Assembly (NCBI GenBank): GCA_965238075.1
Contig: OZ250173.1
Coordinates: forward strand, 2,272,001-2,336,000
Direction: 5' to 3'
Length of the DNA stretch: 64,000 nucleotides
Source of the DNA: Candidatus Entotheonellaceae bacterium
Lineage (GTDB): Bacteria > Tectomicrobia > Entotheonellia > Entotheonellales > Entotheonellaceae
Shown: one piece after another, positions 1 to 50,039 of the stretch
Position numbering within the stretch: the first letter of the stretch is position 1
Layout of the letters: the number at the start of each line of letters is the position of its first letter
Notes under the pieces: generated by a model
Database searches by the model: none
Told to the model about the DNA's origin: nothing
Seen by the model: the letters and a program-made list of their open reading frames with translations, nothing else
Program-made: the position numbers and the translations under genes

Positions 1-570
1 CGCTTGTCCATAAGTCCTGAACAGCATCAGGTCGGCCTCCCAGTGGCCGGGTGTGCGGCGCTCAGCGACCTCGGTCGGACGCTCCGCCAGGGGTCGTCTG
101 AGTTTGATGAAGGACGCCGGACTGCGGCCTTTGCGCCGCCGTCTGCCGCGTTTCGATTTGGCAAAGGGCAGATAGTGGCGCCAGGCGTAGTCGTTCTTGC
201 GGGCGAGTTGGGCATAGATGAAGCGGTAGATGGTCTCGTATGAGATAAGGCACTTGGTGGCCTGGCGGGCGAGCCTGCCGGCCACCTGTTGGGGCGACCA
301 GCCGAGCTTGAGGCAGGCCAGGAGGCGGTGTCGCAGGGCTGCATCGCGCTCAAGCTTTGAGCCGCGCCAACGCCTGGCGCGGGCCTGCTGGTCGGCATAG
401 CGGGGCTGGTAGCCGTGGGTCTTTGAGCCATGGCGTTTCAGCTCACGAGTAAGGGTTGATGGCTTGCGATCCAGACTTGCCGCGATTTGGCGCACTGAGT
501 GCCCCTCGGTACGTAATCGGGCAATGTGACATCGCTCCTCGATGTTGAGGTGTGTGTAGCAGAGTCCCAT
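1..570 (-). CDS. IS30-family transposase, N-terminal 190 aa (truncated by window edge)
   Basis: Manual translation, not in the ORF track: MGLCYTHLNIEERCHIARLRTEGHSVRQIAASLDRKPSTLTRELKRHG...GWSPQQVAGRL...ISYETIYRFIY...RRTPGHWEADL. Shows the HTH plus the WSP, ETIY and GHWEAD motifs typical of IS30. Confidence 0.93.
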   Translation of the reverse strand, partial: MGLCYTHLNIEERCHIARLRTEGHSVRQIAASLDRKPSTLTRELKRHGSKTHGYQPRYADQQARARRWRGSKLERDAALRHRLLACLKLGWSPQQVAGRLARQATKCLISYETIYRFIYAQLARKNDYAWRHYLPFAKSKRGRRRRKGRSPASFIKLRRPLAERPTEVAERRTPGHWEADLMLFRTYGQA

Positions 571-35831: not shown

Positions 35832-37031
35832 ATGACCGCAGCCCTGCAGGGCATCCGGGTGCTGGACCTTTCGCGCTACGTGGCCGGCGCCTATTGCGCC
35901 AAGTTGCTGGCGGCGTTCGGGGCCGAGGTGATCAAGGTCGAGCCGCCCGGCACGGGCGATCCGGCGCGCGCCATGGGGCCGTTTCTGCATGGCCGGCTCA
36001 ACCCGGAAACGAGCGCGCTGTTCCTCTACCTCAATCCCGGCAAGCAGGGCCTGACGCTCAATCTCAAGCACCCGCAGGGCCGGGACATTCTCCAGGCACT
36101 GGTTCGGGACACCGACGTGTTGGTTGAAAATTTCACGCCGCGTGTGATGCCGGCGCTCGGTTTGGATTACGCTACCCTGAGCGCCGTCAACCCGCGCTTG
36201 ATCATGGTGTCCATCAGCAGCTTCGGGCAGAGCGGACCGTATCGCGACTACAGGGCCAATGACATGATCTCGTACGCCTTGGGGGGTTACATGTACCTCA
36301 ACGGCCACCCGCAGCGACCGCCCTTGAGCGGGGGCGGCCATCAGCCGGCCTATCAGGGTGCCCTGCATGGCTACAGCGGCGCCATGGCGGCGCTCATGTC
36401 GCGGGAACAAAGCGGGCAGGGCCAGCACGTGGACATCTCGATCCAGGAATGCATGGCCTCCATCCACCAGTTTACCATCAACCGCTATGTGTACGTCGGA
36501 CGCATTCAGAAACGCCTTGGGAACCGCTATCAACGCGCTCATCCGATTACCATCTATCCCTGCAAGGACGGCCTGATCTCCCTGGCCGTCAGCACGCAGG
36601 AGCAATACGAGCGGTTCCTGGCCCTGGCCGGTCTGACGGCCTTGCTGGAGGATGCGCGGTTTGCCACGCCGTTCGCGTGCTCCGAGCATGCCGCGTCGTT
36701 TGACGAAAGTCTTGCCCCCTGGTTGCAGGCGAACGGCAAGCACGACATCGTGCATCGTTGTCAGGAAAACCGTATCCCGGCGGCCTTCGTCAACGACGTT
36801 GCCGAGGTGATGGACGACCCGCAGTACCAGTTCCGCGGCTTCTGGCACGATTTGGACCACCCCGTCGCCGGTCGTCAGACGTACGCCGGCTTTCCCTTCC
36901 ACATGACCGCAACGCCGCCGGTGCTGCAGCGGGCGTGTCTGTTGGGCGAACATACCCAGGACATCCTGGCCGCGCGGCTGGGCTGCAGCCACGTTCAACT
37001 GGCCGACTGGCGGACGCAGGGGGTCATCTAG
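35832..37031 (+). CDS. CaiB/BaiF family III CoA-transferase
   Basis: LQGIRVLDLS..VAG, GAEVIKVEPP..GD..R, DVLVENF.P, SISSFGQSGPY. Confidence 0.93.
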   Translation: MTAALQGIRVLDLSRYVAGAYCAKLLAAFGAEVIKVEPPGTGDPARAMGPFLHGRLNPETSALFLYLNPGKQGLTLNLKHPQGRDILQALVRDTDVLVENFTPRVMPALGLDYATLSAVNPRLIMVSISSFGQSGPYRDYRANDMISYALGGYMYLNGHPQRPPLSGGGHQPAYQGALHGYSGAMAALMSREQSGQGQHVDISIQECMASIHQFTINRYVYVGRIQKRLGNRYQRAHPITIYPCKDGLISLAVSTQEQYERFLALAGLTALLEDARFATPFACSEHAASFDESLAPWLQANGKHDIVHRCQENRIPAAFVNDVAEVMDDPQYQFRGFWHDLDHPVAGRQTYAGFPFHMTATPPVLQRACLLGEHTQDILAARLGCSHVQLADWRTQGVI

Positions 37032-37051
37032 GGCGAGGAAAGGGGCCTGCC

Positions 37052-38316
37052 ATGAACGGTGCGCTGCACGGTGTGCGCATGATCGATATGACCCGGGTAT
37101 GGGCCGGTCCTCACGCCACCCGGATGCTGGCCGACGTGGGAGCCGAAGTGATCCACGTCACCAGCCGCAAGCTGGTCGGCCCCCTCACCGTTACCCGGGA
37201 GACGGCCCGTATTCTGGGGGTCTATCCCGACGACGAGCCGGGCGAGCGGCATTGGAACCGTAACTCGCAAACCAATGACCTGATGCGCAACAAGTACGAC
37301 ATCACACTGGAGCTGGATACCCCCGACGGCCTGTCGTTGTTGCGCCGCCTCATCGCCATCAGCGACGTGGTGATCGAGAACTACAGCCCGCGCGTCATGC
37401 CCAAGTTTGGCCTGGATTATCCCCGCCTGCAGGAATTGAACCCCCGGATCATCTTGTGCTCGATGCCGGGCTACGGTTCCCAGGGACCCTACCGCGGCTT
37501 CATCTCCTACGGTACGAACGTGGACCCGGCAGCGGGACTTGCCAGTCTGATGGGCTACCCCGGTGAAGCGCCGCACATGAGCGGCAATGCCTACCCGGAT
37601 CCGGTGGCCGGCCTGTTCGCCGTCGGTGCCATCTTGACGGCGCTGTATCACCAACGGCGCACCGGGCAGGGGCAGCACATCGACCTCTCCCAGGCCGAGG
37701 CGACCACCGCCCTGCTGGGTGAGGTTTCGCTTGGCACCCGGCTGAACGACGTCGTCCCGCCCCGCATGGGGAACCGTCATCCGCGCCAGGCGCCGCATGG
37801 ATGCTATCCTTGCGCGGTGACGACACCTGGGTGGCCATTGCCGTGCGCAGCGACGAGGAATGGCACGCCTTTACGCGTGTCCTGGGCCATGCGGCCTGGT
37901 GTGCTGAGGCTCGTTTTGCCACGTTGCCCGGGCGCTTGCAACACCACGATGAGTTGGACCGCCATATCACCGCCTGGACGGTGAAACAGGACGCCTACCA
38001 CGTGATGCACACCTTGCAGAACGCCGGTGTGCCGGCCGGCGTGGTCGTCAACGCCGAGGAGTTGGTCAACGACCCGCACTTACACGCCCGCCATTTCTTC
38101 TGGGACATCGATCATCCCGAAGCGGGTATGCGACGTTACGCCGGTCAGCCGGTGCGGTTATCGGCGACCCCGGCACGGCTCTATCGCTCGGCGCCTTGTC
38201 TGGGGCAGCACAATGACCAGGTGCTGGGCGGATTGCTCGGGCTGTCAGCCGACGAACTCGCCGCCCTGCGCGACAAAGGCGTGATTGGCGATCATCCTTT
38301 GCCGCGAAATGGATGA
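37052..38316 (+). pseudogene. CaiB/BaiF CoA-transferase with a 1-nt frameshift near 37813
   Basis: N-part ends APHGCYPC; the C-part continues GDDTWVAIAVRSDEEW...APCLGQHN in another frame. Confidence 0.85.
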
Positions 38317-38478: not shown

Positions 38479-39378
38479 GTGATCGAGATACGACCCATGT
38501 CGATTCATATCGGCGCGGAAATTCACGGTGTCGATCTGACCCAACCGCTGGCGTCGGAAGCGGTGCAAGAGATTCGCGCGGCCCTGCTGCAGTGGAAGGT
38601 GGTGTTTTTTCGCGACCAACACCTCAATCATCAACAGCAGACCGACTTTGCCCGGCAGTTCGGCCAACTCACCCCTGGGCACGTGGTGTTTGGCAACGAC
38701 GCCACCTATCCGGCCGTTTACTCGGTGGCCAAACACCGCATGGCGAATCGCCACCAACGCCAAGGGGTGATGAAGCCCTGGACGGGTTGGCACACCGACA
38801 TCACCGCCGCCATTAACCCACCAGCCGCCTCCATTTTGCGCGGCGAGATTGTTCCACCCTACGGCGGCGACACGCAATGGACCAACCTGGTGGTCGCCTA
38901 TGCGAACCTGTCGCCCACCTTGCAGGGCTTTATCGACGAGTTGCGCGCCGTGCACCGCTATGCCGCCCCGCAAACCGCCCAGGATACCGAGGAATATAAC
39001 GAACTGGTGCGCCGCTGTACGCTGGTGAGTGAGCACCCGCTGGTGCGGGTCCATCCCGAAACGGGCGAGCGCGCCCTGTATTGCAGCCCGTCGTTTCTCA
39101 AGTCAATCGTTGGCCTGACGCCGCGCGAGAGCGAGCAATTGCTGGAACTCCTATGGGAACACGCCATCCGGCCGGAATTCACGGTGCGCTTCAAGTGGGA
39201 ACCGGGCAGCCTGGCGTTTTGGGACAATCGCTCGACCGCCCACCTCGCCCCGCGCGATATCTTTGCGACCGATTTTGATCGGCAGTTCTACCGCATCACC
39301 CTCATGGGCGACATCCCGGTGGGGGTTGACGGCAAGGAGTCCGTGTCGGTCGCCGGCGATCCCATCACGTCTGTATGA
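38479..39378 (+). CDS. TauD/TfdA-family Fe(II)/2-oxoglutarate dioxygenase
   Basis: IGAEIHGVDL, WHTD, GGDTQW, HPLVRVHPETG, WDNRSTAH. Confidence 0.93.
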   Translation: MIEIRPMSIHIGAEIHGVDLTQPLASEAVQEIRAALLQWKVVFFRDQHLNHQQQTDFARQFGQLTPGHVVFGNDATYPAVYSVAKHRMANRHQRQGVMKPWTGWHTDITAAINPPAASILRGEIVPPYGGDTQWTNLVVAYANLSPTLQGFIDELRAVHRYAAPQTAQDTEEYNELVRRCTLVSEHPLVRVHPETGERALYCSPSFLKSIVGLTPRESEQLLELLWEHAIRPEFTVRFKWEPGSLAFWDNRSTAHLAPRDIFATDFDRQFYRITLMGDIPVGVDGKESVSVAGDPITSV

Positions 39379-39416
39379 AAGGCGCCTGCCACAGCCATTG
39401 CCCGGCGTTTGGGCAC

Positions 39417-39448
39417 AAAAAAACCCCGGAGGCGGGATGCCTCCGGGG
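39417..39448 (-). terminator. Intrinsic terminator
   Basis: 10-bp stem CCCCGGAGGC/GCCTCCGGGG with a 5-nt loop and a U7 tail on the minus strand. Confidence 0.85.
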
Positions 39449-39574
39449 TCGCGGTGGGCTGCTTGGACTAGCCGAGGCACGTGTGTGCCGACGCCTATGC
39501 GCCCAAGCCGATGCCTCAAGCCTCAGCCACCTCGCTGATCGTGTGTTGCATTAGATCACCTCCTTTCTTGCGTG
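39417..39574 (-). ncRNA. Candidate small RNA / micro-mRNA with 11-codon ORF (MQHTISEVAEA, 39516-39551)
   Basis: Bounded by a sigma70-type promoter and an intrinsic terminator; AGAAAGGAGGTGATC SD directly before the ATG. Confidence 0.6.
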
Positions 39575-39579
39575 CCGCA

Positions 39580-39607
39580 AGCATACCATTCCGCAACGTC
39601 GTGTCAA
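39580..39607 (-). promoter_or_regulatory. Sigma70-type promoter
   Basis: TTGACA-16nt-TATGCT with extended -10 TG. Confidence 0.7.
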
Positions 39608-49849: not shown

Positions 49850-49922
49850 TGGAGAATGCGGGATTCGAACCCGCGACCTCCGCCTTGCAAGGGCGGCGCT
49901 CTCCCAACTGAGCTAATTCCCC
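49850..49922 (-). tRNA. tRNA-Ala(UGC), CCA not encoded
   Basis: GGGGAATTAGCTCAGTTGGGAGAGCGCCGCCCTTGCAAGGCGGAGGTCGCGGGTTCGAATCCCGCATTCTCCA; cloverleaf with G3:U70. Confidence 0.97.
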
Positions 49923-49965
49923 AACAGCAGGGTAAGGGGTGGACAAGGGAGTGAAGCAGGGGGGA

Positions 49966-50039
49966 TGGGCCTGGGTAGAGTCGAACTACCGACCTCACGC
50001 TTATCAGGCGTGCGCTCTCACCAGCTGAGCTACAGGCCC
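49966..50039 (-). tRNA. tRNA-Ile(GAU), CCA not encoded
   Basis: GGGCCTGTAGCTCAGCTGGTGAGAGCGCACGCCTGATAAGCGTGAGGTCGGTAGTTCGACTCTACCCAGGCCCA. Confidence 0.97.

Follow-up and report, generated by a model that had tools for sequence, protein, structure and literature searches.

A likely divergent member of the Ms_IGR-5 RNA family in a Candidatus Entotheonellaceae bacterium and its possible engagement of ribosomes

The small RNA (sRNA) Ms_IGR-5 is listed in Rfam (RF02471) as 'Actinobacteria sRNA', and IGR-5 corresponds to ncMSMEG15794c of Mycobacterium smegmatis. Its transcript has been reported from Streptomyces lividans (PMC8079986), Streptomyces avermitilis (PMC8780764) and M. smegmatis (PMC10454040), and ribosome footprints were found on the homologues of Mycobacterium abscessus and M. 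smegmatis (PMC4974804). The M. smegmatis RNA is reported to start at an A (+1) with a nicotinamide adenine dinucleotide (NAD) cap, in a preprint that calls it 'uncharacterized' (bioRxiv 10.1101/2021.12.14.472595). Here we describe a related RNA gene on the minus strand, at 39607..39417, of a stretch of 64,000 nucleotides (nt) of contig OZ250173.1 from a Candidatus Entotheonellaceae bacterium (the window; all positions without another label refer to it).

The element is a genuine gene that stands by itself: it has a promoter and a terminator of its own and specifies a minus-strand RNA of ~157 nt, from ~39573 to ~39417. The gene, its family, its fold and its selected reading frame are established by computation. 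We are confident that it represents a divergent Ms_IGR-5 member from outside the Actinobacteria. We further propose, with a probability of roughly 0.55, that it is a regulatory RNA which is translated and whose fold would be reshaped as ribosomes load and terminate; the RNA probably acts by engaging ribosomes and not through its peptide. A ribosome-binding RNA was among the roles considered in the original prediction for this DNA and is the best reading of the present data. The qualification 'undescribed' that accompanied it has to be dropped, as the match to Ms_IGR-5 places the element in a described family: the element itself is not of an undescribed kind, its family being already listed, yet uncharacterised.

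The likeness to Ms_IGR-5 extends to the order of the parts: a 5' ACAC or ACGC, a long Shine-Dalgarno (SD) sequence, a hairpin that contains the start codon, GAGGUGGCUG, a stop five codons further on, a variable domain, GAAUCC..CAG.CACC and a terminator, together forming a stand-alone single-copy gene. The element differs in that its host is not an actinobacterium, that it is shorter than the 184-position model, that the register of its start-codon hairpin (P1) is shifted by 1-2 nt, that the 3' strand of its helix H3 is one base longer, and that its terminator is classical and U-tailed. Its parts are the following.

39607..39602, minus strand: -35 hexamer TTGACA (promoter scan).
39585..39580, minus strand: -10 hexamer TATGCT with TG directly 5' of it, 16-nt spacer from the -35 hexamer (promoter scan).
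39573, minus strand: predicted transcription start (A), 7 nt past the -10 hexamer; the RF02471 alignment begins here.
39572..39570 with 39535..39533, minus strand: helix P0, CGC with GCG (pairs verified on the fold).
39568..39554, minus strand: SD1, AGAAAGGAGGTGATC (as RNA AGAAAGGAGGUGAUC), a 15-nt complement of the 3' tail of 16S ribosomal RNA, as given by the 16S end of this same genome.
39558..39536, minus strand: hairpin P1, UGAUC (39558..39554) with GAUCA (39540..39536), start codon in the loop (pairs verified).
39551..39549 (ATG) to 39518..39516 (TGA), minus strand: mini open reading frame (mini-ORF) MQHTISEVAEA, the ATG, 7 nt 3' of GGAGG, being followed by 10 more codons and TGA.
39533..39524, minus strand: SD2, GAGGUGGCUG (codons Glu-Val-Ala); its first G closes P0.
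39461..39453, minus strand: 3' strand of helix H3, CAGCCCACC, paired with the 5' strand GGUGGCUG within SD2, one bulged C (pairs verified).
39519..39513 with 39478..39472, minus strand: helix P2, UUGAGGC (which holds the stop codon) with GCCUCGG (pairs verified).
39512..39479, minus strand: variable domain (20-160 nt in relatives) with a local hairpin, GGCAC (39489..39485) and GTGCC (39480..39476).
39470..39465, minus strand: unpaired conserved UAGUCC (family consensus GAAUCC or CAAUCC).
39450..39417, minus strand: intrinsic terminator, a 12-base-pair (bp) stem (39450..39422) followed by 7 T (U) to 39417 (terminator scan).

All features listed in the original prediction are present: the promoter (TTGACA-16-TATGCT), the ATG 7 nt after GGAGG, the frame MQHTISEVAEA-TGA and the strong terminator can all be read from the minus strand, and the promoter and terminator scans return exactly the sites that had been named. 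The promoter matches 10 of 12 consensus positions and is one of 2 promoter-like sites between 38000 and 41000, a region in which shuffled sequences yield 0.8 +/- 0.8. Within the family, a promoter of the form TTGNNN-16..18-TANNNT occurs in 105 of 119 distinct upstream regions versus 0/116 control regions, and its -10 hexamer ends 13-17 nt 5' of AAGGAGG. That the unit represents more than chance is shown by its retention, at 89-97% identity, in 5/5 other genomes of the genus; one other genus retains it in part.

The most conspicuous feature of the element is SD1. The single 16S gene of the genome ends with ...GGATCACCTCCTTTCT, and SD1 complements its last 15 bases without exception (15/15), which bears out the perfect 15-nt Shine-Dalgarno that had been announced from the sequence. 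In the 3.35-Mb genome the exact 15-mer occurs twice, namely in the antisense strand of the ribosomal DNA and in the element; there are 0 sites with one mismatch and 11 with two. SD1 is the best ribosome-binding site, and the longest 16S-tail complement, of its genome. The duplex with the 16S tail has a predicted energy of -25.1 kcal/mol, compared to -7.0 kcal/mol for GGAGG alone.

The family relation was not apparent at the curated cut-offs of Rfam, at which the Infernal/Rfam check that had been suggested returned nothing at the locus; it appeared solely in E-value mode. There, RF02471 was the best Rfam match at the locus, with 25.3 bits (cut-off 45) and the full model (1-184) aligned; the corresponding E-value was 6.3e-4 on a stretch of 451 nt and 1.1e-3 genome-wide, where it was the top RF02471 match. 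A covariance model (R1) was made from 38 of the pattern loci described below (34 actinobacterial, 4 other), from which the genus of the element was excluded. In the genome (3.35 Mb) R1 gave the element as sole strong match (48.9 bits, E 1.9e-10), where it should be kept in mind that R1 E-values are rough and that related genomes do not count as independent. Of the 10 actinobacterial loci tested with RF02471 itself, 9 score above its cut-off (48.8-189.5 bits), and so does, with 67.5 bits, locus L134 from a sister class within the phylum of the host; the cut-off was not reached by L125, L051, L023, L028, L094, L098 and L142. The assignment of the element as a divergent Ms_IGR-5 member follows from the R1 match together with the relatives that score above the Rfam cut-off. 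Two further matches are recorded here in passing. The other R1 match in the genome (14.5 bits, C1:1694143-1694181, minus strand) lies antisense to the 16S 3' end and shows how closely SD1 mirrors the tail. In the actinobacterial locus L016, a Guanidine-II riboswitch and a Sernc389 antisense RNA (93-145, 2059-2653) lie near the Ms_IGR-5 copy, to which they are unrelated.

The comparison also indicates that the family reaches well beyond the Actinobacteria. A scan with the pattern AAGGAGGTGRT-N12..40-GAGGTGGCTG, using one genome per species, yielded at least 120 loci. Among the matches listed, most were from Actinomycetota, and the non-actinobacterial ones came from Pyrinomonadaceae, Blastocatellia and Terriglobales (Acidobacteriota); in addition, there were single metagenome bins labelled Zixiibacteriota and Sumerlaeota, and bins labelled Heliobacteriaceae and Syntrophobacter, all of which labels can be wrong. 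Seven of the 120 pattern loci (L042, L050, L060, L072, L081, L082 and L124) were rejected as chance matches that lack the layout. The distribution was counted on the basis of R1 matches at E up to 1e-3, with stricter filters for samples of more than 40 genomes. A match was obtained in 12/17 genomes of the element's own phylum, in 18/151 genomes (one of them unpublished) of a phylum-wide sample around a Pyrinomonadaceae genome (the Acidobacteriota-centred sample), in 73/151 genomes (six unpublished) of a phylum-wide sample around a Mycolicibacterium genome, and in 9/84 genomes from other families in the domain. At least one of these 9 was an already counted acidobacterial locus (L176 = L159), so that the 84 do not all represent further phyla. 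Sequences from the unpublished genomes were not used. Nearly every genome with an R1 match has one copy.

Pairing with the 16S tail seems to be a trait of this whole family. In 77/77 distinct pattern-chosen copies the tail can form 15 or more uninterrupted pairs (Watson-Crick or G-U); among the model-found copies, 15/21 allow 15-16 contiguous pairs and the other six allow 10-13. The search pattern left five positions of the 16-nt complement free (-3, -2, -1, +12 and +13), and the bases found there are informative: G at -2, A or G at -1 and C or U at +12 in all 77 distinct copies (77/77 each), C or U at +13 in 70/77, and A or G at -3 in 68/77. The changes at the free positions are thus mostly transitions, by which pairing with the tail, be it Watson-Crick or G-U, is preserved. 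An internal anti-SD that masks SD1 was tried as a family-wide feature and rejected (median z -0.43, with z < -2 in 12.5% of 112 copies). The copies with z < -2 are mostly from Pyrinomonadaceae/Blastocatellia, with a few from actinobacteria, and the Acidimicrobiia lie just above that line; in the genus of the element no internal anti-SD was found (z about 0). In some lineages the variable domain imitates 10-12 nt of the 16S tail (e.g. CUCCUCCUUUCC, GGACCACCU) and could thereby mask SD1; such mimics are present in L023, L033, L116, L051 and L130 (Acidobacteriota), in L024, L092 and L118 (Acidimicrobiia) and in L178.

The layout of the reading frame is kept to a striking degree. Among 114 distinct 5' modules, 106 have an ATG, GTG or TTG in frame, versus 6 and 16 in the other two frames, and of the modules with a single ATG, 60 have it in frame and 5 out of frame. 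Eight copies, chiefly from Acidimicrobiia, have no ATG, GTG or TTG and use an in-frame CTG at a fixed spacing. In 113/114 modules a stop triplet is found 15 nt (five codons) after the GAG of GAGGUG, and almost never at neighbouring offsets. When all 126 loci are taken, the stop is exactly five codons past GAG in 118; the remaining eight are the 7 chance matches and L071, in which the distance is six codons. The stops over this whole set are TAG 93, TGA 24 and TAA 9; the frames of the family copies comprise 11-17 codons. The same layout, including GAGGUG, was found in all 34 model-found copies that were examined (own phylum 12, Acidobacteriota-centred sample 17, other families 5), in line with the check by homologues and covariation that had been proposed: the arrangement of SD, ATG and stop is kept. 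The peptides, on the other hand, all end in E-V-[A/I/V/P/T]-x-x and have only Glu-Val as invariant residues, which are encoded by GAGGUG. The third residue (A, I, V, P or T) covaries with the partner strand in H3, and the residues before Glu-Val spell the 3' strands of P1 and P0 in a clade-specific manner. Our comparison thus indicates that the reading frame is under selection and the peptide is not. Since the frame is conserved without conservation of the peptide, ribosomes are apparently meant to read it and the product is unlikely to matter; translation of the frame in vivo is likely. In L157:1501-1653 (Acidobacteriota-centred sample) we observed a longer frame, MSYHSTSEVNYRTREVVAT, with two GAGGUG motifs, possibly because the SD2 segment has been duplicated internally.

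The fold shows a comparable conservation. A 164-nt RNA folds at -73.8 kcal/mol (z = -3.6), and 0/200 shuffles were as stable. In the predicted structure the core of SD1 stays unpaired in the space separating P0 from P1, the 5' strand of P1 is made up of the last five bases of SD1, and the 3' strand of H3 carries an anti-SD-like CACC that would mask SD2. RNAalifold on a MAFFT alignment returned 9 pairs only; the helices were then written by hand and tested on an alignment of 38 sequences (A2) and on one of 32 non-actinobacterial sequences aligned to R1 (A3). For A2, 85.4% of the cells were paired, as compared to 29-43% when the partners were slid, and the covariation score was 0.220 versus at most 0.058 when slid; 0/500 shuffles reached the score, and 13/27 pairs showed changes on both sides. 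The corresponding values for A3 were 81.1% versus 34-38%, a score of 0.370 versus at most 0.062, 0/500 shuffles and 19/27 pairs. P0 is paired in 93-96% of the family, with 3 of 4 pairs changing on both sides, and P2 in 70-80%, with both-side changes in 6/9 pairs (A2) and 8/9 pairs (A3). The P1 equivalent is GGUCC:GGAC in actinobacteria and GUGAU:AUCAC in Pyrinomonadaceae. In the case of H3, compensatory variants occur in copies that stand outside the choice made by the pattern: GGUGAUUG:CAAUCACC in L134 and L135, GGUGGCGU:ACGCCACC in L169-L172, GGUGCCUG:CAGGCCACC in L156, and GGUGACUG:CAGAUCACC in L164-L168 and L173. The 3' strand has the family form GAAUCC..CAGUCACC. Taken together, all four helices covary across the family, from which we infer that the RNA fold is under selection. 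The structured segment that had been noticed originally, with an outer stem GCUUGG:CCAAGC around GGCAC and GTGCC, is present with both stems; nevertheless, the outer stem (GCTTGG 39507..39502 with CCAAGC 39466..39461) is specific for the genus. It is invariant within the genus and is not kept in the nearest other genus (G012), which does keep the family helix UGAGGC:GCCUCG. The variable domain carries indels within the genus.

The combination of a selected fold and a selected frame suggests the following course of events. SD1 would recruit the 30S subunit very tightly, and a ribosome loaded there would unzip P0, H3 and P2 while it translates the short frame. With the stop codon in the A site, the GAGGUG of SD2 (39533..39528) would be positioned 6 nt behind the P-site codon; as the GAGGUG of SD1 is 5 nt before the AUG, the geometry at the stop would be nearly that of initiation. 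Because of this similarity, the 16S tail could pair again when translation terminates, competing with the internal CACC. SD2 would then hold the terminating ribosome while the 3' strand (UAGUCC...CAGCCCACC) becomes free, such that the RNA may alternate between a closed form, in which SD2 is masked, and an open form that is held by the ribosome. The output might consist of tethering, or of sensing and reporting, ribosomes, or of exposing the conserved 3' strand, with the peptide as a by-product. We regard this output, be it ribosome holding or release of the 3' strand, as a tentative model held at somewhat less than even odds.

A number of points weigh against the interpretation of the element as a translated regulatory RNA of this family. 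The output model is based on geometry alone. P0 comprises just 3 bp in the element, and the fold constrained to the family helices has an energy of -63.0 kcal/mol versus -70.2 kcal/mol for the unconstrained fold, about 7 above the optimum. A3 was fitted to the structure of R1, which favours that structure. The 16S tail was read in this genome only, and the canonical tail was assumed for all others. The score of 25.3 bits fails the 45-bit threshold of Rfam, and sub-threshold RF02471 matches (E up to 10) occurred in 7/14 control genomes. The search pattern fixes 20 nt of SD1 and SD2, taken from the element and the Rfam consensus. The invariance of these bases in 118 pattern loci is therefore circular; the circularity is relieved only by the 34 model-found copies, and R1 itself favours the consensus. 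For this organism, the RNA-library contigs (4 runs from 2 studies, 95-99% identity) extend across the locus into the flanking genes as well, and give neither strand, RNA ends nor level. Finally, a literature search on the names Ms_IGR-5 and IGR-5 found no assigned function within its reach, which stopped short of supplementary tables; a search with the peptide string returned surname noise only.

The element could instead be an untranslated structured sRNA, either one whose long SD1 lures the 16S tail or an RNA-binding protein as a decoy, or one that pairs with target mRNAs; the frame would then be a side effect. The strong covariation fits such a role, as does a complementarity of 15-16 nt, far beyond the need of translation, and the internal anti-SD of some lineages could mask SD1. 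Very long SD sequences are reported to slow ribosome clearance. However, structure alone leaves unexplained that three kinds of stop occupy one fixed position (113/114) and that the start remains in frame (106 versus 6 and 16) across loops that differ by whole codons. We consider this explanation unlikely, also in view of the ribosome footprints reported on the homologues (PMC4974804). The opposite possibility, a micropeptide gene in which MQHTISEVAEA is functional and the RNA a mere messenger, would account for the clear selection on frame, start and stop and for the shared ending E-V-x-x-x-stop. Yet the conserved Glu-Val codons are the SD-like GAGGUG and nothing else is kept. The residues track the RNA pairing: R-T, T-I-S and N-H-S are the P1 3' strand in three clades, and Ala is replaced by Ile, Val, Pro or Thr alongside compensating changes in the H3 partner. 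Peptide lengths range between 11 and 19 residues, high-GC genomes retain the rare codon GCU, and a plain messenger would not need four covarying helices. We thus find a functional micropeptide improbable. The related idea of a toxin, already dismissed in the original prediction, does not fit either: type I toxins are hydrophobic, have ~20 or more residues and are accompanied by an antisense RNA, while the present peptide consists of 11 polar or acidic residues and the promoter/terminator scan showed no antisense unit.

A selenopeptide messenger, in which the UGA is read as selenocysteine, the following stem is a selenocysteine insertion sequence (SECIS) and the product is MQHTISEVAEA-U-GIGLGA, had been mentioned as a less probable option. 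The genome indeed has a selenocysteine tRNA (tRNA-Sec; 73.9 bits, cut-off 47; C1:617194-617286) and SelA (512.6 bits; C1:1027456-1028553), which makes recoding of UGA plausible for selenoproteins generally, and there is a stem-loop 3' of the UGA. The read-through product has nevertheless to be rejected, its probability being practically negligible: relatives, some of them from the same phylum, have TAG or TAA in place of this codon, 2-nt indels within the genus break the frame past the TGA, and no SECIS family was found in Rfam even at E up to 10. In addition, the apical loop ACAC is without a G. Bacterial SECIS loops usually carry a G. A cis-acting element could take the form of a leader or attenuator, for which a mini-ORF followed by a terminator is the typical appearance, or of an antisense regulator of one of the flanking units, i.e. 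the TauD-like gene or the 2-oxoacid dehydrogenase operon; the distance between the terminator and the 3' end of the TauD-like gene is 39 nt, and one RNA contig spans both. But there is no same-strand gene downstream to at least 35832, no neighbour is common to different phyla among ~118 loci, and the element overlaps neither flanking coding region, which renders a cis role very improbable and agrees with the earlier view of a self-contained unit that is not a leader or attenuator.

With respect to the genomic surroundings, the TauD-like gene (38479..39378, plus strand) is convergent with the element. Further downstream lie coenzyme A (CoA)-transferase genes (35832..38316, plus strand), all genes down to at least 35832 being on the plus strand. 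A divergent 2-oxoacid dehydrogenase operon (E1-alpha, E1-beta and E2) is found on the other side. Synteny among the ~118 loci was observed only within actinobacterial orders, the largest cluster with shared neighbours comprising 31 loci, all actinobacterial. A frame of 122 codons (39151..39519, minus strand) that starts at a TTG overlapping the TGA of the mini-ORF is probably spurious: it crosses the terminator, is antisense to the end of the TauD-like gene and is not kept by the indels within the genus. The CoA-transferase family III gene appears split, with ORF 36758..37984 (plus strand) corresponding to profile positions 1-236 and an overlapping ORF in another frame (37801..38316) to 236-366; the gene could be broken or frameshifted, or the sequence could contain an error. 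Two adjacent tRNA genes at 49850-50039 (minus strand) are the sole Rfam matches in the window at curated cut-offs.

What makes the element of interest is the design that the family implies, and not whether it was described before. The range of an sRNA listed as actinobacterial is widened to non-actinobacterial lineages, and a single RNA appears to combine two layers of selection, on the fold and on the reading frame, with an unconserved peptide. One may speculate, although we deem it rather unlikely at present, that Ms_IGR-5-like RNAs constitute a ribosome-targeting class in multiple phyla, in which an SD of 15-16 nt catches the entire 16S 3' tail and a second SD 9 nt before the stop, the sole constant part of the translated frame, serves to park or count ribosomes, or in which an anti-SD-like 3' strand is released only during translation. 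If so, these RNAs would be a sensor of translation status without a described counterpart. The hypothesis of ribosome engagement can be tested in M. smegmatis and Streptomyces, where the RNA is expressed and carries ribosome footprints.

Several known systems share part of this design. In leader-peptide attenuators, and in the trans-acting rnTrpL of Sinorhizobium, a short frame with a strong SD is likewise combined with structure and an intrinsic terminator, and there too a ribosome on the frame remodels the downstream helices, as it would in the element. The element differs from the attenuators in that it has no downstream gene and no runs of regulatory codons, shows no antiterminator alternative in the free and the constrained fold, both of which leave the 12-bp terminator intact (alternative folds being sampled non-exhaustively), and keeps a constant spacing between the end of its frame and an internal SD. 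Such an internal SD, with which the 16S tail can pair at the stop, is also found in the prfB frameshift site and at termination-reinitiation junctions. Unlike these, however, the element has neither a second frame nor a nearby restart codon. The spacing of its SD to the P-site codon is 6 nt rather than 3, and the family uses all three stops and is therefore not specific to one release factor. Finally, the dual-function sRNAs SgrS/SgrT, RNAIII/hld and SR1/SR1P are both structured and translated, like the element; their products have at least 26 residues and are conserved as proteins, whereas the two conserved residues of the element coincide with an RNA motif.

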